Source of the DNA: a virus
Lineage: Duplodnaviria > Heunggongvirae > Uroviricota > Caudoviricetes
DNA length: 38,856 nt
Strand: one strand, 5' to 3'
Virus record (IMG/VR): IMGVR_UViG_2513237219_000004
Location: 1-38,856 of that record
Shown here: positions 3,200 through 38,856 of the stretch, one piece after another
How the letters are laid out: each line of letters begins with the position of its first letter
How positions within the stretch are numbered: position 1 is the stretch's first letter
Made by a program: the position numbers and the translations under genes
The notes under the pieces: model-generated
Databases searched by the model: none
Told to the model about the DNA's origin: nothing
Seen by the model: the letters and a program-made list of their open reading frames with translations, nothing else

Positions 3200-3474
3200 G
3201 GGCGAATCTCCGTCCTGCCACCAAGTAAGCGGATTGCCACTCGTTCCCGGAAGGTAAGCGGTCGATGGTGTCCGCGGGCATTAACAATTTCAGGCTTTCC
3301 ATTAGGCGGATAATTGACCCTGACCGATTGACCATCTAGCGCGTGAGAAGCCTCGAGTAGTGCTGACTTTAAGTGCGCAGGGCACTCTTTCTGCACCCGC
3401 TCGCCGTCTGAAATGACACCTGCAATCCCCTGAAGCATGCTGGCTAAATTGCTGAGATAATTTTTCACATTCAC
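3196..3474 (-). CDS. Hypothetical protein
   Basis: 92-aa ORF in operon-like array, stop/start overlap with neighbours. Confidence 0.5.
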   Translation of the reverse strand: MNVKNYLSNLASMLQGIAGVISDGERVQKECPAHLKSALLEASHALDGQSVRVNYPPNGKPEIVNARGHHRPLTFRERVAIRLLGGRTEIRP

Positions 3475-3854
3475 TCTCCTTTACCGGTGCCATAGGCAGA
3501 TAAGCACTCTTCAAATCCAGCCTGATTATCCGTTTGACCTAAACTGAAGCCATGCTGAAGACCATGACGAAATGCGCTATCTTGCAATTGATGTGCGCTA
3601 TCGAGCTTCGCTTCCAGTTCAGCGATTCGCTTCTCTGCGGTTTCCAACTCATCCAGCAGCGCCAGCACGGTGGCGGGGTTGGCTGCGGCGATAAATGCAG
3701 CATCACGCGCTTCGTTTTCACTGAATACCATGGCTATTTGCTCATGGTTCACGCCGTCAGTGGAGTAAATCTCATCGTCGAACTCAACAGCCCACCGGCC
3801 TTTCGTCGCCTTCTCCGCCGCTTCACGCAGAGCCTGGTAATTAATCTCGCTCAC
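3471..3854 (-). CDS. Ead/Ea22-like protein
   Basis: N-terminus SEINYQALREAAEKAT..., coiled-coil middle; GTG start with AAGGAGG RBS. Confidence 0.7.
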   Translation of the reverse strand: MSEINYQALREAAEKATKGRWAVEFDDEIYSTDGVNHEQIAMVFSENEARDAAFIAAANPATVLALLDELETAEKRIAELEAKLDSAHQLQDSAFRHGLQHGFSLGQTDNQAGFEECLSAYGTGKGE

Positions 3855-4561
3855 TGGTTGCCTCCTTTGCGAAGCTGGGCGGCGATATCTTCGAGAACGC
3901 CATCAGAGAATGAGCGGTCAAAATCGCCTTCCGGCGCATTAGCCATAAACTCAGTAGAGGTAAGAATCATCCTGGCAATATCCGCGGCGTTCTTTGCAGT
4001 ATCATCAATAAAACCAGCTTCCCAGGCAGCCAGCATTCTGTTCGCCACAAAGTAAGCTCCCTCCTTGCGTGCTTCAGTCTTCACTTCAGCCAGGAAAGCG
4101 TCGGTGGCCGGGGTTTTGTTATCTGACTCCAGCCACTGGTTGTAGTAATAATCGAACATGCCAGTAGGATAACCACATCCGCTGTGCACGTGGTCTTTCA
4201 TAGCAGAACCACACATGCAGTAGTCATTGTCAGTATTACTAATGATGTCGATAAGTTGCTGTGTCCGTTGCTTCAACATCGCATTCTCCGCCGCCAGCGC
4301 CGAAAACTTCTCGTGTGCCAACTTAACAGCTGCATCAGCCTGCTTAATTGACTCAGTCGCTTTCTGGTGGTCTTCGGCCAGCCCTGCTAAATCAGCCTCC
4401 AGTTCGGCTAGGCGTTCATTTAATGCATCTCGTTCATCCAGTAGAGCCAGCACAACCTGAGGTGTTACTTTCATACGAAATGCCAGCAATTTTTGAGGCG
4501 TTGCTACTGTTTCAATTGCTACTGCTGCCTCACGCAGTGCCTGATAGTCAATCTTGCTCAC
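3851..4561 (-). CDS. Ead/Ea22-like protein (paralog)
   Basis: Track ORF 3851..4642 trimmed to GTG at 4561 (VSKIDYQALREAA...) preceded by AAGGAGG; N-terminus parallels the neighbouring Ea22-like gene. Confidence 0.6.
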   Translation of the reverse strand: MSKIDYQALREAAVAIETVATPQKLLAFRMKVTPQVVLALLDERDALNERLAELEADLAGLAEDHQKATESIKQADAAVKLAHEKFSALAAENAMLKQRTQQLIDIISNTDNDYCMCGSAMKDHVHSGCGYPTGMFDYYYNQWLESDNKTPATDAFLAEVKTEARKEGAYFVANRMLAAWEAGFIDDTAKNAADIARMILTSTEFMANAPEGDFDRSFSDGVLEDIAAQLRKGGNQ

Positions 4562-4853: not shown

Positions 4854-5314
4854 TTTTGCTCACCTTCCTGTTCTTCCAGAAAAATACGCATAGCCTCAAG
4901 CATCTCTTCGGTGTCATACGGAGACAGCTTGTCACGCAGGATGTGTTCAATGCTGTTAATGAACTTGCGGATTGCTTTGCGTTCAATTTCAGCCAGGAAA
5001 GCATCGGTGGCTGGGGTATTTTCCATTAGTTGTTTTGACGTTGACCAAAGCGCGGAAAGCCACTCTTTATCAAACCATTTATCCTTATGGTGAAACATTT
5101 CATCAACTGTCTGGTGGCAGCGGGATACCTCAAAAAGGCACCGCGCATTCTCCGCTGCCAGAGCCGCGCACTTGGCCTCCGCTTCAGCAAATTTACGCAC
5201 CAGGTACTCAGCGTTTGTTTCGTTAACCTTTAAATCTCGGGGGATGCATTTACCTTTCAGAAATCCATCCATCTCAATTAGTGACATTTGTTTCATTTCT
5301 TCCCACTCCGCCAC
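4844..5314 (-). CDS. Hypothetical protein sharing a segment with the Ea22-like gene
   Basis: 156-aa ORF; motif [10 protein letters not shown] and about 30 nt of near-identical DNA shared with 3851..4561. Confidence 0.55.
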
Positions 5315-15741: not shown

Positions 15742-15908
15742 TTGACCCAAATCGAAGTTACGAACAAGAAAGCGTCGAGCGGGCTTTAACGTGTGCTAAC
15801 TGCGGTCAGAAGCTGCATGTGCTGGAAGTTCACGTGTGTGAGCACTGCTGCGCAGAACTGATGAGCGATCCGAATAGCTCAATGTACGAGGAAGAAGACG
15901 ATGAATGA
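15738..15908 (+). CDS. ninF: NinF
   Basis: GTG start after GAGGAA inside track ORF 15696..15908; ...[42 protein letters not shown] matches lambda NinF. Confidence 0.7.
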
Positions 15909-16623
15909 GTTAATAAATGGCAATGCCATCAAAATGACAAGCATTGAAATCGCTGAGTTGGTGAGTAAGCGTCATGACAATGTGAAACGTACCATCGAAA
16001 CGCTGGCTAAAAATGGTGTTATCCGGCTTCCTCAGATTGAGGTTTCCGAAAGAATCAATAACTTAGGGTTCAATGTTCAGTACGAGCATTACGTCTTCGA
16101 AGGCGAACAAGGTAAGCGAGATAGTATTGTTGTTGTTGCCCAGTTGTCGCCGGAATTCACCGCTCGTCTTGTTGACCGTTGGCGAGAGCTTGAAGAAGCT
16201 GCGGTTAATATCCCCAAAACGCTACCAGAAGCGTTGCGCCTTGCTGCTGACCTTGCTGAGCAGAAAATGCAACTGGAAAACCAGCTCGCAATTGCCGCAC
16301 CTAAAGTTGAGTTTGCCGATCGTGTTGGCGAGGCCAGCGGAATTTTGATTGGAAACTATGCAAAGGTTGTTGGTATTGGTCCAAACAAACTGTTTGCATG
16401 GATGCGCGATCACAAAATCCTTATTGCTTCAGGTTCCCGGCGCAATGTGCCAATGCAGGAATATATGGATCGCGGCTATTTCACAGTGAAAGAAACAGCG
16501 GTCAATACAAATCACGGAATACAGATATCGTTCACCACAAAAATCACCGGGCGTGGTCAACAGTGGCTGACCAGAAAGCTGCTCGATAACGGAATGCTGA
16601 AAGTAACAGGGGAGGCTGCTTAA
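15901..16623 (+). CDS. rha: Rha-family phage regulatory protein / antirepressor
   Basis: 240-aa ORF; N-terminal TSIEIAELVSKRHDNVKRTIETL typical of Rha family by recall. Confidence 0.65.
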   Translation: MNELINGNAIKMTSIEIAELVSKRHDNVKRTIETLAKNGVIRLPQIEVSERINNLGFNVQYEHYVFEGEQGKRDSIVVVAQLSPEFTARLVDRWRELEEAAVNIPKTLPEALRLAADLAEQKMQLENQLAIAAPKVEFADRVGEASGILIGNYAKVVGIGPNKLFAWMRDHKILIASGSRRNVPMQEYMDRGYFTVKETAVNTNHGIQISFTTKITGRGQQWLTRKLLDNGMLKVTGEAA

Positions 16624-20327: not shown

Positions 20328-20825
20328 ATGAAATCATTAACCCTCTTCAATCAACCAATTCGTATCGGTGAAGATGGCATGATCTGCCTCACTGATATGT
20401 GGAAAGCCAGTGGTAAAAGTGAATCTGAATCGCCTTACCACTACCTGCGAAACAAGCAGACCAAAGAGTTCTTAGCCGAGCTGGAGAAAAACCACGAATC
20501 TGTGGTTTTTACTGAGCGCGGTGTACACGGTGGAACATATGGCGGGAAGTTTGTTGCTTACGATTATGCGGCTTGGTTAAACCCCGGGTTCAAGTACGCG
20601 GCCTATAAAGTCCTCGATGACTACTTCACCGGAGAACTTCAGCATCGCAACAGCTTAAGTGCGCAGCTCAACATGAAATGTCATGAGTTTGACCAGAAGA
20701 AAGACATGGCGAGCTTCTGCGGACAAGGGCTGGCAGCATGGCGCTATACGAAGCCAGTGTTGGTCGCTGAGATTAACTCCCTGGCTAACCAGCTGCAGAT
20801 TACGATCCCCGGGCTTCCGGGATGA
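20328..20825 (+). CDS. KilA-N domain protein
   Basis: 165 aa; N-terminal LTLFNQPIRIGEDGMICLTDMWKASG recalled as KilA-N/Bro-N-like. Confidence 0.65.
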   Translation: MKSLTLFNQPIRIGEDGMICLTDMWKASGKSESESPYHYLRNKQTKEFLAELEKNHESVVFTERGVHGGTYGGKFVAYDYAAWLNPGFKYAAYKVLDDYFTGELQHRNSLSAQLNMKCHEFDQKKDMASFCGQGLAAWRYTKPVLVAEINSLANQLQITIPGLPG

Positions 20826-32530: not shown

Positions 32531-33826
32531 ATGGCTACGTGGCAAGGATCAAATGGCGGATTGTTAGCTGGTATCGGCGGCGTCAACTCAAACGCTCCGA
32601 GCGTAAATGACATCGGCAATACGCTTCAGCTTATCAGGCAGAACAATGATATTGAGCGTTCAGGCGCTAACAATGTTGGGCTGACTGCTTTGCAAGGTCT
32701 TTCAGGTATTGCAGGGGTGTTTCAGCAGGGAAAGCAGGCTCAGCGGCAGAAAGAATTTCAGCAGGCGTACGCTAATGCTTATGCGTCTGGTGATCGCGGT
32801 GCTTTGCGTCAGTTGGCTACTCAATATCCAGACCAGATTGAATCCGTTCGTAAAGGCATGGGATTCATTGATGAAGACCAGCGCAACTCTATCGGCACCT
32901 TAGCGGCTGGCGCTCGCCTTGCGTCATCATCTCCAGAAGCGATGCAATCATGGCTGCAAAACAACGCCAAGGAACTGACTCGCGTCGGTGTTGACCCTAA
33001 CAGCGTTGCTCAGATGTATCAGCAGAACCCTTCAGGATTTGGTGAGTTTGTTGATCACCTTGGAATGGCTGCTCTTGGTCCGATTGATTACTTCAATGTT
33101 CAGGACAAGATGGCAGGTCGTGAGATTGACCGAGGCAGGCTGGCAGAGACAATCCGCAGCAATCAGGCTGGAGAGGCGCTAACAGCGCGTGGTCAGGACA
33201 TCCAGATACGTGGACAGAACATCAGCGCACAGAATGCTGCTCTTTCCCGCGAAATACAAAGAGCAGAATTACAAGAAAAGGCTCTGGACAGACAAATAGC
33301 CAGAGAAAGCAATCAGTTAAAGCTTGAAGAGCTAAAACAGAAACAGGCAGATGTTCGGCAAAAGGCTGACATAGCCCGCGCTGACAGGCAGGCCGCCGCT
33401 CAGGGTGCAGTTGATACATTCAGCACCGCGCTTGATTCTCTCAACGAGATAGAGCAAAGCCCCGGCCTTTCAAAAGCAGTAGGAATTCGCTCAGCGTTTC
33501 CGACAGTTCCTGGCTCTGATGCAGCTAACTTTGAAGCAAGGCTCGACACCTTTAAAGCTCAAACATTCCTTCCTATGGTGCAGTCCCTTAAGGGTATGGG
33601 GGCTCTTTCAGATGCTGAGGGTAAAAAATTATCCGATGCGGTTGGTGCCCTAAGCCCCAAAATGAGTGAAAAGGCTTTTCGTGACTCTATCGGAAAGATT
33701 AGAAATCAGCTTGAAAGCAAGTTGAGCACTGTTAAAAAACAGTTTGATTATCAGGAGCCGGTGCAGAATATGCCAGGGCAACAATCTACTACTGGCAGTA
33801 ACTTTTCTTCACTATGGGGTGATTAA
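32531..33826 (+). CDS. Ejection protein (P22 gp20 type)
   Basis: 431 aa, position after gp7; coiled-coil rich. Confidence 0.75.
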   Translation: MATWQGSNGGLLAGIGGVNSNAPSVNDIGNTLQLIRQNNDIERSGANNVGLTALQGLSGIAGVFQQGKQAQRQKEFQQAYANAYASGDRGALRQLATQYPDQIESVRKGMGFIDEDQRNSIGTLAAGARLASSSPEAMQSWLQNNAKELTRVGVDPNSVAQMYQQNPSGFGEFVDHLGMAALGPIDYFNVQDKMAGREIDRGRLAETIRSNQAGEALTARGQDIQIRGQNISAQNAALSREIQRAELQEKALDRQIARESNQLKLEELKQKQADVRQKADIARADRQAAAQGAVDTFSTALDSLNEIEQSPGLSKAVGIRSAFPTVPGSDAANFEARLDTFKAQTFLPMVQSLKGMGALSDAEGKKLSDAVGALSPKMSEKAFRDSIGKIRNQLESKLSTVKKQFDYQEPVQNMPGQQSTTGSNFSSLWGD

Positions 33827-34185
33827 TGGCTAAAGCATGGAAAGATGTTATCGCCTCTCCACAGTATCAGGCGTTAGCACCAGAACAAAAAGCGCAGGCT
33901 CAGGAGCAATACTTCAATGAAGTCGTGGCCCCGCAAGCCGGAGAAAATGCAGAGCAGGCTAAGCAAGCTTTCTATGCTGCCTATCCATTGCCATCTGTGC
34001 AGACAGTGGAGACACAACAACCAGTATCACAGCAACAACCACAGCAAAGTGGATTTATGTCTGATCTTGGCGAAGCAGTAAAAGAGACTGGTCGCGGACT
34101 GGTGCAGGCTGGCGTGAACGTGGCAAACATACCTGCATCAGTTGCCGATGCTGTAACCAAGCGCGGCGGCTTGGGCTGGCGGTAA
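33826..34185 (+). CDS. Ejection protein gp16-like, N-terminal piece (frame 1)
   Basis: 119-aa ORF starting with TAATG overlap on gp20 stop; ends at TAA 34183..34185 while the next frame is already open from 34157. Confidence 0.55.
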   Translation: MAKAWKDVIASPQYQALAPEQKAQAQEQYFNEVVAPQAGENAEQAKQAFYAAYPLPSVQTVETQQPVSQQQPQQSGFMSDLGEAVKETGRGLVQAGVNVANIPASVADAVTKRGGLGWR

Positions 34186-34270
34186 ACTCGGTATTGGCGA
34201 TGGGACATATCAACCAGCACCACGAGTAACAACGCAGGGATTAGAGCAGGACTTTGGCCTTCAGCAAGGT

Positions 34271-35824
34271 GTGCTGACTCCACAAACGACAGAGGGAAGG
34301 GTATTTGCTGAAGCATTGCCTTACCTCACTCCTGCTGGCGTTGAGAGAGCGGCGGCACAGGCACCAACACTTGCTGGTCGAATTGCTCAGGGGGCAACTC
34401 GACTTCTCGCAGAAAACGCAGTTGGATCACTTGCTGCAAACAGTATGAAAGATGATGCGGAAGCACTCGCTACCGATTTAGGTGTTGGCGTTCTGGCAGG
34501 CGGCGCTATTAACGCTGCTGGACGTGGATTAGGTGCTGCTTATCGTGGCGTTCGCGGTGCTATTGCGCCAGAAGCGCAGCATGCTATCAGATTTGCAGAG
34601 CGTGAAGGAGTGCCTCTGCACACCACAGACCTGTTACAACCTACTTCCCGCGTCGGAAAAATGGCGCAAACGACAGCAGAAAATATCCCCCTGGCTGGCA
34701 CAAGCGGAATGAGAGCAACGCAACAGGAAGCGAGAAGCCAGTTGGTGCAGAGATTTGCTGATAAATTCGGTGAGTATGATCCAGCGGTTGTTATTGACAG
34801 CCTTAAAGCGAAAACATCAGGAATTCGTCGCGCCGCAGGAAATCGACTGGAGCAGGTTCAGAATGCCATGGCGGGAATAAACATTCAGCCTGCAAGAGCA
34901 ATTCAGCAGATTGATACAGAAATATCTAACCTGCAGAAGCTTGGTAAGGTTGCTGATAACGAGACTATTTCAAAACTTCAGTCCTATCGTGATGAGCTTG
35001 TTCGCAATGCTGGTCCTGATGGTCCGGTAAATCTGGATTTGAAGCAATTAAGCGATCTGCGCAGCCAGTTCAGAATGGACGTGAAGGGGGAGCGACCAGT
35101 GTTACCAAACCGTTCCGATGCTGCCATTCAGCGCGTTTACAAGGCAATGACCGACGATATCAATGGTGCCATTGGTCAGAATCTTGGCAACGATACTCTC
35201 CGTAAATATCAGCAAGCCAATGCCGTCTACGCTGACGAAGCGGCTAAACTAAAGAATACCAGGCTGAAGAATGTTCTCATGAAAGGCGACCTGACGCCGG
35301 AAGTTGTCAACAACATGCTATTCAGCAAGAACAAATCGGAAATTAAGACGCTGTATAACTCAGTTGGTCGTGTTGGCAGGGCGCAAATGCGCAATGGCAT
35401 CATTGGAAAGGCGATGGAGAAATCTGGCGGATCCCCTGACCAGTTCCTTCGGCAGCTTAATATCCTGCAAAACCAGACTGGCATCACATTTAAAGGTCAG
35501 GAAGCCGCTTATCTGAAAGGATTAAAAAACTACCTGCAATCCACGCAGCAGGCTGCAAAAGCGGCAATAACAACACCCACAGGGCAGCAAACTATCCCGT
35601 TCATTATTGGGTATGGGACGGCAATGAACCCGGCTACAACTGGCGCAGCAGTAAGCTACGGACTTCTTACTCGCGCCTATGAGAGCGAGCCATTCAGAAA
35701 TGCAATGCTCCGAATGGCAAACACCCCACGCGGATCGACAGCGTTTGAGAAAGCCATGCAGCAAGCGCAAAAAGCGATTAATGCACTGACGCAGGGTGCT
35801 AAGTCTGATTCGTTGTCAGAATAG
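34271..35824 (+). CDS. Ejection protein gp16-like, C-terminal piece (frame 2)
   Basis: 517-aa track ORF from a GTG without clear SD; its frame is open back to 34157 with no ATG, so it is probably the continuation of 33826..34185. Confidence 0.65.
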   Translation: MLTPQTTEGRVFAEALPYLTPAGVERAAAQAPTLAGRIAQGATRLLAENAVGSLAANSMKDDAEALATDLGVGVLAGGAINAAGRGLGAAYRGVRGAIAPEAQHAIRFAEREGVPLHTTDLLQPTSRVGKMAQTTAENIPLAGTSGMRATQQEARSQLVQRFADKFGEYDPAVVIDSLKAKTSGIRRAAGNRLEQVQNAMAGINIQPARAIQQIDTEISNLQKLGKVADNETISKLQSYRDELVRNAGPDGPVNLDLKQLSDLRSQFRMDVKGERPVLPNRSDAAIQRVYKAMTDDINGAIGQNLGNDTLRKYQQANAVYADEAAKLKNTRLKNVLMKGDLTPEVVNNMLFSKNKSEIKTLYNSVGRVGRAQMRNGIIGKAMEKSGGSPDQFLRQLNILQNQTGITFKGQEAAYLKGLKNYLQSTQQAAKAAITTPTGQQTIPFIIGYGTAMNPATTGAAVSYGLLTRAYESEPFRNAMLRMANTPRGSTAFEKAMQQAQKAINALTQGAKSDSLSE

Positions 35825-35914
35825 CCTTTCAAACACCAGGAACGTGCAAAAACCAAATATGTAGAACGCGAGGTTTATCGTATCCCTCTGCATAGGCGAT
35901 ACCTTTGCTGATTG

Positions 35915-36400
35915 TTATCTGATGTTACTGCTACTGTTGCATGTTACCGTGTTTCCAAATCCTGAATTGCAGTTTGTATATGTGTCAACGCGTGTTGGGT
36001 AAGGTTGAGTTATAACAGGCTGGCGCGCTTTTTGCTCGATCGCTTGCATTGTGTTTACAGCCTGATAATTCAATAAAGCCTGCTGGAATGCTTGGCTTTG
36101 TGCTATTTGTTGGGCTTGTTCTTGGATTTGTAATTGAACATAAAGATTCTGAAGCTCAAGTCTTGCCTGTGCGTCACTTATCTTGCCTTCATCGACACCT
36201 TGCCCGAGCATCTTTGCAGCAAGGACATACAGCTTAGGTGTTGGTGCTGATGCCATGCGTGAGTCGTTCTTCACACTGGCATCAAGGCAATTAGCCATAT
36301 CGCTAAGCTTTTGATAGCGTTGTTCGCAACTTGCTTGATAGTCACTTACTTTTGCGCATCCAACCAGCAGAATCGGGATAATTAACAGTGATTTTTTCAT
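35915..36400 (-). CDS. Lipoprotein in the sieA/immI slot
   Basis: Track ORF 35915..36436 trimmed to ATG at 36400 after AAGGAG; signal peptide with lipobox LLVGC (MKKSLLIIPILLVGC); Gln-rich coiled-coil body. Confidence 0.7.
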   Translation of the reverse strand: MKKSLLIIPILLVGCAKVSDYQASCEQRYQKLSDMANCLDASVKNDSRMASAPTPKLYVLAAKMLGQGVDEGKISDAQARLELQNLYVQLQIQEQAQQIAQSQAFQQALLNYQAVNTMQAIEQKARQPVITQPYPTRVDTYTNCNSGFGNTVTCNSSSNIR

Positions 36401-36470
36401 ATGGTTAACTCTCCTTAGTTTTTCACAGGATATCATGAAGGCTATGCCATTTTAGCCGGAAACTAGATTT

Positions 36471-36737
36471 CTATGTTTCCTTTTTATTATTGCTATACAT
36501 GGTCTTAAGCGTATCAAAGACAATTTTCTTAACCATCTCAGATTGTTGTTCTGCTATACGCTCTGCATCGTCAATGTAAACGGATGCAGAGCTTTGTTTA
36601 GCCAATGATTCTTCAATCGCTGCAATTATCTCTGAGTTCAGCGATCTGTTATTCATCTTCGCACGCTGTTTAATTTTCGCGTGGAGTTCATGCGGAAGTC
36701 TCAAGTGAAACTGCGCCTCGTCGTATTTGCTGTACAT
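36471..36737 (-). CDS. mnt: Mnt-like ribbon-helix-helix repressor
   Basis: Internal ATG (MYSKYDEAQFHLRLPHELHAKIKQRAKMNNRSLNSE...DAERIAEQQSEMVKKIVFDTLK) resembles P22 Mnt by recall; GGTGAGG RBS. Confidence 0.75.
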   Translation of the reverse strand: MYSKYDEAQFHLRLPHELHAKIKQRAKMNNRSLNSEIIAAIEESLAKQSSASVYIDDAERIAEQQSEMVKKIVFDTLKTMYSNNKKET

Positions 36738-36810
36738 CCTTGATGCCTCACCAGTTGGGTGGAATGGCATCGTAACCTACTGGATAAATACTCAATAGTA
36801 CCATTTCGGT

Positions 36811-36833
36811 ATGCAATCACATCATGGTTGCAT
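36811..36833. promoter_or_regulatory. Candidate operator: inverted repeat ATGCAA-N11-TTGCAT
   Basis: Perfect 6-bp arms between the divergent mnt-like and tailspike genes. Confidence 0.3.
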
Positions 36834-36858
36834 CATATCATTCGTCTGGAGCAATGAA

Positions 36859-38856
36859 ATGTCAGATATCACCGCAAATGTTGTGGTAAGCATGCCTTCG
36901 CAACTCTTCACTATGGCTCGTTCTTTTAAAGCCGTAGCTAATGGAAAGATTTATATCGGAAAAATTGACACTGACCCGGTAAATCCTGAAAACCAGATTC
37001 AGGTTTATGTGGAGAACGAAGACGGCTCTCACGTTCCTGTATCGCAACCAATCATCATTAACGCTGCTGGTTACCCCGTATACAACGGACAGATTGCCAA
37101 GTTTGTAACTGTGCAAGGCCATTCTATGGCTGTTTATGATGCGTACGGTGCGCAGCAGTTCTATTTTCCTAATGTGCTGAAGTATGACCCGGATCAGTTA
37201 AGGCAAGAACTTTTAAGTTCAGATGATGGGCTTGGTGATTCATTAATCACAGTAAAACAACCTTTAATTAATTCTACAAAACGAACACAGCATGATAAAA
37301 ATGCAGAGAATATTAGTATTCTTGATTTTGTAAAACATGAAGATGTTAGCGACATTGTTAATGGCAATATTGACGCAACACACATATTTTCCTATGCATC
37401 TTCAGTTTCACCTGACGGTGTTTATGTTCCACAAGGTACTTATTTAATTGATGGCTATATTAATGGAAAATTTTATGGCCCTGGTAAAATAATACAAAGT
37501 AAAGGAGACGAACCTATTCCATTTGCAAATCCTGCTCAGACAATTGGAAATGTTTTTTTGGGTTTTGATGCTGGCAAGCTATATAATGGAAATGATATAT
37601 CTGGGCAAGTTGTTGCGATTGGACCAAGTGCTGGAAGAAACATTAGCACGGGCAATAACATTACAGCAATTGGGACAGGTGTATTATCAGGTGATACCCT
37701 TCAAGACGATCTCACAGATACATCGCCATGTACTGGCACTGAGATTGTAGCAATTGGTGTGAATGCGTGCAAAAAAGCAACCACAGCTAGTAACATAATT
37801 GGAATTGGGCGCGATGCCCTAAATGAAAATAAAGAAGGAAATTTTAATGTTGCAGTAGGATCAAGTGCATTACAACAACTTCATACTGGTAGTGGTAATG
37901 TTGCAATAGGTCGAGCGGCTGGAATGCGAGCTGGAATTGTTACAGACCAATCAGGCAAAAGGTTGTCTTATAACATTCTAAATAATAACACATTTATAGG
38001 CAATGCATCCGGAAGGGAGATTACAAATGGAGATAACAATACATATATTGGTAGCGGATCAGGAAGAGGGATTTCTTCTATAGATAACCCTTATACAGGC
38101 ACATCTACAGGTATGAATAATGTCGCAGTAGGAGCCGACTCACTTAATTCTATTGGTTCGGCAAGTAACAATGTAATGCTTGGATATAGATCTGGTAGAT
38201 CGTTAAGCTCTGGAACAGGTAATATATTTATCGGAACCAATGCTGGTTCGGCAATTTCTTCAGGTGACAACCAATTAATAATTGCTAATCAGAGCGGGCT
38301 CCCTTTTTTGAGTGGGTTGATGGGACCTGTTTCTGATGAGAATAATTATGCTCGTTTTGATGCGTCGGTACAACCAGCAACAGATAACGCTAGAAATTGC
38401 GGTTCAGCATCCAGAAGGTGGAATACAATATTTGCTGGCACTTCAACGATTAACACATCGGATGGTCGAGTTAAGACTGATAAAAGACCGATTACTGATG
38501 CAGAGAGACGTGTTGCATATAAAATAAAGGGTTTGGTTTGTTGTTTTAGATTTATAGATTCAGTAATTGAAAAAGGAGAAAATGCTAGATTACATTTTGG
38601 CATTATTGCCCAAGATGTATATAAAGCATTTGCTGAAGAAGGGCTTGATGCAAACGACTATGGTCTTTTTTGCTATGATAAATGGGAAACTGAATACGAA
38701 CCAGTAATTGCTAAAAAGATAATTTTTGATGAAGAATCCGGTGATGAAAAATTAATTGAATATGATACTGGAGAACGCAGAATATCTATAGAAGGGGGTG
38801 AGCGATATGGAATAAGATATGAAGAATTATTATGTTTTATAATATCTGCAATATAA
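36859..38856 (+). CDS. Tailspike: P22 gp9-like head-binding domain + Gly-rich repeat receptor-binding region + C-terminal intramolecular chaperone (S74-like)
   Basis: Internal ATG of track ORF 36811..38856; [47 protein letters not shown]... matches P22 gp9 N-terminus; C-terminus SDGRVKTD...[24 protein letters not shown] resembles S74 chaperone domains; distal two thirds AT-rich. Confidence 0.85.

Follow-up and report, generated by a model that had tools for sequence, protein, structure and literature searches.

Probable remnant of the immI region, encoding an orphan Mnt homologue and a predicted lipoprotein, in a P22-like prophage of Escherichia coli

The window analysed here is the whole 38,856-nucleotide stretch of IMG/VR virus record IMGVR_UViG_2513237219_000004, a P22-like prophage in which an integrase gene (1-1305) is followed by early, nin, lysis, head and ejection genes and then by the tailspike gene. 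The element of interest is the interval between the homologue of gene 16, which encodes a DNA ejection protein, and the tailspike gene. It carries a predicted lipoprotein gene and a homologue of the repressor gene mnt, giving the order 16, lipoprotein, mnt, tailspike, and the two middle genes are on the minus strand, antisense within the late operon. With high confidence, we identify the interval as a reduced 'ant moron', the residue of an immI immunity region, carried by a P22-like E. coli prophage (Lederbergvirus). This identification is based on Pfam matches of the Mnt homologue to Arc and Repressor_Mnt, its 49% identity to P22 Mnt, the P22-equivalent position of the interval, and a window without ant, arc or sieA. 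The explanation that we consider best overall, with slightly better than even confidence, is a leftward two-gene ant moron with a functional Mnt and operator and with an envelope lipoprotein that has an accessory role.

Content and distribution of the interval

According to the annotation of the P22 record, the equivalent interval of that phage is sieA-orf59a-mnt-arc-sar-ant. The initial annotation of the window, made from the sequence alone, had proposed that sieA-mnt-arc-ant of P22 is replaced here and that neither arc nor ant follows mnt. Its account of P22 is accurate, with orf59a and sar in addition, and the replacement is borne out by the comparison with P22 and by tblastn searches with P22 Ant, Arc and SieA, which gave zero matches anywhere in the window. 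The tailspike gene is directly next to mnt, and the arc, ant and sar antisense RNA of a complete immI region are absent from the interval. An Rfam scan of 35700-37100 gave zero matches. Overall, the gene content proposed initially has stood, the lipoprotein length and the perfect inverted repeat proposed with it have not, and the accompanying interpretation is supported in part.

Elsewhere in the window, a 240-amino-acid Rha + ANT (KilAC) antirepressor-like protein is encoded at 15901-16623 within the nin operon, and a KilA-N/ORF11CD3 protein is encoded at 20328-20825 after the lysis genes. A search of the window found no Mnt-type operator near either gene. The ANT-domain gene is thus not the arc/ant pair under the mnt operator that the initial annotation had named as evidence against its own proposal.

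There are 97 representatives of the whole 1.2-kilobase interval among 5,426 complete E. coli genomes, with 95-99% identity. At least 224 of the 5,426 have the mnt-tailspike junction with an intact mnt open reading frame (ORF), and 186 have the lipoprotein gene, O26 enterohaemorrhagic and O104:H4 strains among them. In IMG/VR, 80 contigs encode this type of Mnt; mnt is divergent from the tailspike gene in 79 of them, and the remaining contig ends at mnt. None of the 80 loci contains ant, arc or sieA. The comparison across related prophages that the initial annotation recommended therefore reveals a recurrent arrangement, and its view that an Mnt without an antirepressor target is unusual does not hold. 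Villafane et al. (2008) named the region "ant moron", described mnt with one unknown gene in ST64T, ST104 and Para1, and also drew the P22-like prophage of E. coli B7A in their figure (PMC2629481). E. coli B7A carries the window interval at 95.9% identity. The orphan mnt of phage L was discussed by Zaworski et al. in 2020 (PMC8022706). The arrangement is ordinary, widespread and already described.

The features of the interval and its boundaries are as follows.

33826..35824, plus strand: homologue of gene 16, which encodes a DNA ejection protein; bounds the interval on the left, and its DNA is 94-96% identical to the VSe13 and Gally versions.
35825..35914, no strand assigned: spacer separating the convergent stops of gene 16 and the lipoprotein gene; neither strand has a terminator-like site.
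35915..36400, minus strand: predicted lipoprotein gene, an ORF of 161 amino acids, phrog_6067; its start agrees with the NCBI annotation pipeline in strain GPEC1292.
36401..36470, minus strand: 70-nucleotide spacer between mnt and the lipoprotein gene; no recognisable terminator.
36471..36737, minus strand: mnt homologue, 88 amino acids, stop codon at 36471; its start agrees with the NCBI annotation pipeline.
36742..36771, minus strand: inverted repeat GATGCC/GGCATC in the mnt 5' leader, around the mnt Shine-Dalgarno sequence; conserved across the intergenic alignment.
36769..36795, minus strand: candidate leftward promoter Pmnt, with -35 TTGAGT (36795-36790), a 15-nucleotide spacer and -10 TACGAT (36774-36769); aligns with the annotated P22 Pmnt (TTGAGA-17-TATCAT).
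36791..36813, no strand assigned: predicted Mnt operator, core AGTACCATTTCGGTATG at 36797-36813, dyad TACC-N5-GGTA; homologous to the annotated 23-base-pair P22 Mnt operator.
36811..36833, plus strand: inverted repeat, likelier a hairpin of the tailspike mRNA leader than a protein operator; 9 base pairs with one G.U, a 5-nucleotide loop, and its end 25 nucleotides before the ATG.
36859..38856, plus strand: tailspike gene, right boundary, running off the window end; Head_binding and Peptidase_S74 chaperone domains.

The Mnt homologue, its predicted operator and the tailspike leader

The protein that the initial annotation called a clearly Mnt-like repressor of 88 amino acids is indeed one. It is 49% identical to P22 Mnt over 76 amino acids (E=3e-29) and includes an N-terminal ribbon-helix-helix domain (Pfam Arc, PF03869; E=7.7e-15, residues 7-49) and a C-terminal tetramerisation helix (PF11423, Repressor_Mnt; E=6.5e-13, residues 57-81). 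As is characteristic of an Mnt repressor, its gene diverges from a 17-base-pair dyad that abuts its own predicted -35 element. Repression of an ant promoter, a further hallmark, has no counterpart, as no arc or ant lies downstream here or in 79 of the 80 related IMG/VR loci. The ratio of nonsynonymous to synonymous substitution rates (dN/dS) in pairwise comparisons of mnt is 0.03-0.48 (0.027 at a dS of 1.1 for VSe13 versus JEP4), and for the lipoprotein gene it is 0.04-0.07. Purifying selection acts on mnt and the lipoprotein gene alike.

The mnt-tailspike spacers of the window, VSe13, JEP4, Gally, three E. coli prophages and one Yersinia prophage were aligned with the mnt-arc spacer of P22. 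The left two-thirds are homologous in every sequence, including a CTCAAT block followed by the dyad that constitutes the annotated P22 Mnt operator. This dyad co-varies with the N-terminal recognition strand of Mnt. In P22, where the recognition strand is HFNFR, the dyad reads AGGTCCAC-G-GTGGACCT. Phage L and Gally (QFNLR) have AAGACCAC-N-GTGGTCT, and the ant-less phage L has a perfect 17-base-pair palindrome at the operator position. The left half AAGACCAC is kept in the Yersinia prophage and in Proteus phage Brookers, also QFNLR, and the right halves have diverged (GTAGCAC and GTGATAC, respectively). The window Mnt shares the strand QFHLR with Sf101, VSe13 and JEP4, and the dyads of this group follow the pattern (A/C)GTACC(A/G)TTT(C/A)GGTATG. 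Because of the homology to the P22 Mnt operator and the covariation with the recognition strand, we place the predicted binding site of the Mnt homologue, with fairly good confidence, at 36791-36813.

The site at the predicted operator is the only intergenic occurrence of TACC-N5-GGTA in the window. One other match was considered as a second operator and rejected, since it sits within the coat gene and is probably due to chance. In phage CUS-3, a tandem pair of mnt-family genes (3211-3740 of the compared stretch) lies upstream of the ant moron genes, and one of the pair has a divergent recognition strand, PQVNLR.

The dyad adjoins the -35 element of the candidate Pmnt, as the Mnt operator does at P22 Pmnt. 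In the same alignment the Arc operator is degenerate and the hexamers of the old ant promoter are poor. The sole call of a consensus promoter scan of the region is a minus-strand site, CTGACA-17-AATGAT at 36865..36837, which points leftward and overlaps the tailspike start; it is not kept in the other spacer type described below and recalls the BTP1 antisense RNA STnc6030 (PMC7067206). The GATGCC/GGCATC repeat of the mnt leader is present in the E. coli, Salmonella and Yersinia versions and could be a putative translational control element.

There is a second, 141-nucleotide spacer type (VSe13, JEP4 and FG31-1), whose homology to the window ends at 36813-36816, directly past the dyad. These positions mark a mosaic junction: in the 141-nucleotide type the operator is fused to a gene 9 leader of the P22 type, an arrangement that a clean deletion of arc-ant would give. 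In P22 itself, a segment of the gene 9 leader (AAATTCACCGTAGCCAyGCT) occurs as a direct repeat at 5044-5060 and 5155-5171 of the compared stretch, flanking about 110 base pairs downstream of the ant terminator.

The initial annotation had put forward a perfect inverted repeat at 36811..36833 as the operator. Its arms, ATGCAATCA and TGGTTGCAT, are complementary at 8 of 9 positions as DNA and at 9 of 9 only as plus-strand RNA, by virtue of one G.U pair. A repeat of equal quality occurs in 9% of dinucleotide shuffles of the 121-nucleotide region between mnt and the tailspike start (12% with G.U allowed), and therefore does not exceed chance on its own. That this repeat is the operator of the orphan Mnt is very improbable. 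Such a role might be suggested by its being the longest inverted repeat of the intergenic region, located between divergent genes and overlapping the predicted operator by 3 nucleotides; however, VSe13, JEP4, FG31-1, EC556 and CUPF06, whose Mnt has the same recognition strand, retain 36791-36813 but have unrelated sequence in place of the repeat. Moreover, there is no counterpart at the position of the P22 Mnt operator, and most variants of the repeat tolerate G.U pairing, as expected of a plus-strand RNA.

Hairpins are also found in the tailspike leaders of relatives. Those of P22 (5161-5177 of the compared stretch) and JEP4 can form CCGUAGC-CAU-GCUGCGG, and that of the Yersinia prophage CCGCAGA-UUCGC-UCUGUGG, both ending 27 nucleotides before the ATG. 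The Brookers leader has CGUGA-CUAC-UCACG nearer the ATG (about 14 nucleotides before). Among IMG/VR variants of the window-type hairpin, four kinds of stem change keep the pairing (U.G to C-G, U.G to U-A, and two of C-G to U.G) and two break it. In a covariation test, 98% of cells pair, without a single double-sided change, and 409 of 500 shuffles match this score, which is not significant. The sequence at 36811-36833 can reasonably be read as a hairpin of the tailspike mRNA leader, and the support for this, being below significance, is suggestive.

The predicted lipoprotein and the flanking genes

The initial annotation described a lipoprotein of 162 amino acids with a lipobox and a Gln-rich coiled coil. 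The gene and both features stand, and the length is corrected to 161 amino acids (coding sequence 35915-36400). The minus-strand ORF, preceded by a Shine-Dalgarno sequence AAGGAGA at 36410-36416, begins MKKSLLIIPILLVGC followed by AKV, with the lipobox LVGC and Cys15. The signal peptide, MKK-SLLIIPILLV-GC, fits the lipobox pattern [LVI][ASTVI][GAS]C, and Cys15 is invariant in 42 homologues. A larger set of 94 homologues, all from Enterobacterales, likewise has an invariant Cys15, with conserved Cys25 and Cys38 and a conserved C-terminal T-x-C...C motif (Cys154). Residue +2 is Ala16, which is nearly invariant, and there is no Asp at this position. Under the Lol sorting rule of E. coli, Ala at +2 implies the outer membrane. 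The protein is predicted with considerable confidence to be lipid-modified at Cys15 and, because of this residue, sorted to the outer membrane.

The protein matches the unnamed family phrog_6067 over its full length (E=1.2e-109, residues 1-161 of a 161-position profile). An AlphaFold2 model, with a mean predicted local distance difference test score of 68, depicts a confident four-helix bundle (approximately residues 18-100), a long Gln-rich helix (15 Gln within residues 78-125) and a small C-terminal hairpin with two cysteines, TNC...TCNSS. The homology search and structure prediction that the initial annotation advised have thus yielded a family and a bundle and neither a functional name nor a known fold. 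A 'GspK' label on a Cronobacter homologue is spurious (18 bits versus a cut-off of 130). The signal peptide is the only hydrophobic segment and the SieA motif FxRYPxEAxxFNK is absent; a tblastn search with P22 SieA, in which types B and C were not used as queries, gave no match. Homology to Bor, Iss or TraT was not detected with Pfam and PHROGs. The idea that the protein inhibits a lytic-transglycosylase domain of gene 16 was dropped, because Pfam finds no such domain in gene 16 of the window, Yersinia or Morganella, and because the lipoprotein occurs with two C-terminal types of gene 16 that are 33% identical to each other.

The lipoprotein gene occupies the slot between gene 16 and the tailspike gene in Escherichia and, with orthologues at 55-63% identity, in Yersinia, Proteus and Morganella. 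It follows mnt with a 15-nucleotide gap in the Yersinia prophage and with a 17-nucleotide gap in Proteus phage Brookers. In Morganella the gene is in the same slot without mnt, behind a promoter-like sequence of its own that contains TATAAT. Salmonella, the fifth genus, is represented by phage MS2 LVA, which encodes a lipoprotein and an Mnt homologue and is known from these proteins, its record being unannotated. The shared strand, the lack of a terminator-like site between the two genes and the order kept with gaps of 15-17 nucleotides in Yersinia and Proteus make it plausible, and in our judgement somewhat probable, that the lipoprotein gene and mnt are co-transcribed. Leftward transcripts may also enter the 3' end of gene 16 in antisense orientation, because no terminator-like site is found in 35825..35914.

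The gene is accessory. It is present in 40 of the 80 IMG/VR loci with the same mnt and absent from 39 of them as well as from P22 and Sf101. This absence from about half of near-identical loci, together with the antisense orientation, contradicts a role as a conserved virion or lysis component, which the initial annotation had named as a finding that would refute its proposal. Variation among close relatives and a strand opposite to the late operon are instead the marks of a moron. A profile search further recovered smaller relatives that share the bundle and the cysteine hairpin and have about 130 amino acids, in 237 clusters at 50% identity. One of these remote relatives belongs to an element with integrase, AlpA and primase-helicase genes that resembles a P4-like satellite, where its neighbour is a T5orf172 gene; of two others that could be placed, one is on a phage contig that also encodes a small terminase and one adjoins an HTH/Gp49 pair.

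RNA sequencing (RNA-seq) data are available for Gally, the prophage of strain LF82, whose Mnt is of the QFNLR class (PMC9928086, S1 table). Its lipoprotein orthologue (96% identical) has a transcript level of log2 6.1 in overnight lysogeny broth (LB), against approximately 8 under conditions B1 and B6 and 10.3 after 1 h in macrophages, while gene 16 stays at log2 3.6-4.1 throughout. Relative to the prophage background, the orthologue is 4.5-fold higher in LB and up to approximately 80-fold higher in macrophages. Its expression in lysogens with gene 16 silent shows that it is transcribed independently of the late operon. Gally mnt rises from log2 3.7, which is background, in LB to approximately 9 in macrophages, and the tailspike gene from 3.9 to 7.8. 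Promoters of the region can therefore drive mnt and tailspike expression independently of the late promoter, which fits a retained divergent control region.

A second lipoprotein gene, GALLYPH_14 (lipobox LLSGC; 3836-4255 of the compared stretch), separates the shared one from mnt in Gally and is unrelated to it. In the LF82 data its transcription is stronger still, with log2 values up to 11, and in non-LB conditions it and the shared lipoprotein orthologue are the most transcribed prophage genes after c2 (PMC9928086).

On the left flank, the gene 16 homologue carries one extra C near 34157 relative to VSe13 and Gally, resulting in two ORFs (33826-34185 and 34271-35824). The prophage may therefore be defective for DNA delivery, unless this is a sequencing error. 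The gene 20 homologue upstream of gene 16 carries Inj_translocase. On the right flank, Head_binding extends from residue 1 of the tailspike protein, at ATG 36859, and a GGAG Shine-Dalgarno sequence is located at 36848-36851. The tailspike pairs this P22 head-binding domain with a C-terminal Peptidase_S74 intramolecular-chaperone domain, of a type known from endosialidase tailspikes.

Competing explanations and known systems

In the explanation that we favour, the Mnt homologue, with its intact ribbon-helix-helix and tetramerisation helix, would bind the 17-base-pair dyad at 36797-36813 and not the repeat at 36811-36833, as its homology suggests. By analogy with P22, it may autoregulate the mnt (or mnt-lipoprotein) transcript through the operator abutting the leftward -35 element, and may gate any rightward initiation left from the old ant promoter, which would now read into the tailspike gene. 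The lipoprotein, judging from its amino acid sequence, would be exported, lipidated at Cys15, sorted to the outer membrane and positioned to face the periplasm with disulfide-stabilised domains. The weakest step in this proposal is the last one, in which the lipoprotein would be a prophage-expressed accessory protein that stops related phages from entering once they have adsorbed, in the slot that is taken by SieA in P22. Exclusion is our best single guess for its function, and a tentative one, favoured because the sieA slot is beside the hypervariable ejection genes (PMC10883804) and because relatives occur on other mobile elements. Perhaps, in a bolder version that we regard as doubtful, the protein represents a new class of mobile-element exclusion factor, anchored in the outer membrane and acting in the periplasm on the gp7/gp20/gp16 conduit or the needle, and the Mnt cassette has been re-used as an environment-responsive switch for the lipoprotein and for tailspike expression independent of the late operon. 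The induction seen in macrophages for Gally hints at such a switch.

Several observations weigh against this proposal. On the regulatory side, the candidate Pmnt is weak by consensus, with its 15-nucleotide spacer, and was missed by the promoter scan, and the same scan gave no convincing rightward promoter from the sequence. Deletion of mnt in Gally leaves survival in macrophages unchanged. In addition, the lipoprotein orthologue of Gally is not adjacent to mnt and has different upstream DNA, and thus the Gally RNA-seq is not decisive for the promoter in the window. The orthologue is just under the 5-fold moron cut-off of that study in LB, and its strongest induction, in macrophages, fits a host-adaptation role as well as an anti-phage role (PMC9928086). 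Finally, the lipoprotein has no significant match among Pfam, NCBIfam and PADLOC defence models, and its fold has no specific match among solved or viral predicted structures. The exclusion role is consequently argued from position, context and analogy only.

Two alternatives concern the purpose of an Mnt that has lost its target. One possibility is that mnt is a decaying, functionless relic of the deleted immI, which is one of two options considered for phage L (PMC8022706). The loss of arc, ant and sar, the degenerate Arc operator, the poor ant promoter hexamers and the lack of a macrophage phenotype on mnt deletion in Gally could all be read in this manner. We nevertheless consider it improbable, because an intact ORF is retained in at least 224 complete genomes of E. 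coli and in 80 IMG/VR loci, dN/dS is well under 1, and the operator is kept in step with the recognition strand, including the perfect palindrome of phage L; these observations indicate that the orphan mnt is maintained. Purifying selection on an ant-less Mnt in turn calls for an explanation, and the orphan protein might act in trans, silencing ant of superinfecting P22-like phages and thereby shielding the prophage from antirepressor-driven induction. P22 Mnt keeps ant off on incoming genomes as well (PMC2629481), and this activity would be compatible with the explanation favoured above. It seems unlikely, since a non-exhaustive survey of 80 IMG/VR loci, 331 E. coli genomes and 88 phage records found no ant-bearing phage of the TACC-N5-GGTA class, and since JEP4 instead has Rha and KilA genes that are convergent with mnt and adjacent to a c2-like repressor gene.

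The other alternatives concern the leftward transcript and its lipoprotein. A Bor-like host-adaptation factor that serves in envelope stress, serum or intracellular survival, and not against phages, is a possibility that we rank close behind exclusion. The gene is found in pathogenic lineages, including O26 enterohaemorrhagic E. coli and O104:H4, no defence-system model matched the protein, and the Gally orthologue rises approximately 17-fold over LB within 1 h in macrophages and is still high at 6 h (PMC9928086). This view accounts less well for the constant slot between gene 16 and the tailspike gene, beside the ejection genes, in five genera, and for remote relatives that are cargo of a satellite-like element and of phage contigs; nor was homology to Bor, Iss or TraT detected. 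Alternatively, the leftward RNA itself might matter, being antisense to late read-through and to the 3' end of gene 16. [quoted passage not shown] The absence of a terminator between the lipoprotein gene and gene 16 and the minus-strand promoter-like site over the tailspike start would permit the same here. However, both ORFs are under strong purifying selection at the protein level, and the lipoprotein is 55-63% identical across genera in which the DNA is saturated. This selection indicates that the coding function is real and that any antisense effect is additional, which makes an RNA-only explanation very unlikely.

The arrangement itself adds nothing new, as mnt-only ant morons have been in the literature since 2008. 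What the comparison suggests is that orphan mnt genes appear to be maintained regulators, each with a co-varying operator, which bears on the question left open for phage L. The location of the tailspike gene directly behind the old immI control region could explain the tailspike transcription independent of the late operon that has been reported for Gally and BTP1. The conserved lipoprotein family recurs in the sieA slot of five genera, O26 enterohaemorrhagic E. coli and O104:H4 among the carriers, and merits consideration as a new factor of entry exclusion or host adaptation.

Relative to P22 immI (sieA-orf59a-mnt / Pmnt-Pant-Oarc-Omnt / arc-sar-ant), the window interval has the same slot between gene 16 and gene 9, an mnt that is 49% identical and divergently oriented, and a homologous block of leftward promoter and Mnt operator. 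It differs in having no arc, sar, ant, sieA or orf59a and in its degenerate Arc operator and ant promoter. The operator sequence also differs, the recognition residues of the window Mnt are Gln and His where P22 has His6 and Asn8, and the operator runs straight into the tailspike leader. The Mnt-only ant morons of ST64T, ST104, Para1, phage L and B7A have the architecture of the window interval, in which mnt and the tailspike gene diverge, mnt is accompanied by one gene of unknown function, and arc and ant are lacking. In L and ST64T the companion gene is orf62, which is on the opposite strand, and a terminator follows mnt, whereas the companion in the window is a co-oriented lipoprotein gene; the specificity class of Mnt and operator is different as well.

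SieA of P22 shares with the lipoprotein its slot by the ejection genes, its expression from the prophage and its accessory distribution, being found only in P22-like prophages of Enterobacterales (PMC10883804). It is, however, a multi-pass inner-membrane protein with a cytoplasmic FxRYPxEAxxFNK motif, whereas the window protein is a predicted secreted lipoprotein with no sequence similarity to it. Cor of phi80 and N15, Llp of T5 and plasmid TraT are small mobile-element lipoproteins that alter entry at the outer membrane, and here the likeness concerns a possible mode of action. Only residues 1-31, which are the signal peptide, are matched by the Cor family (phrog_1119, E=0.015), and the mature protein has no homology to Cor or Llp. 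P22-like phages, moreover, do not use FhuA. In BTP1, also a P22-like prophage, the equivalent interval yields a leftward transcript in lysogens, STnc6030, which confers immunity. The BTP1 region contains no ORF of more than 60 amino acids (PMC7067206), whereas the leftward transcript of the window would encode two conserved proteins.

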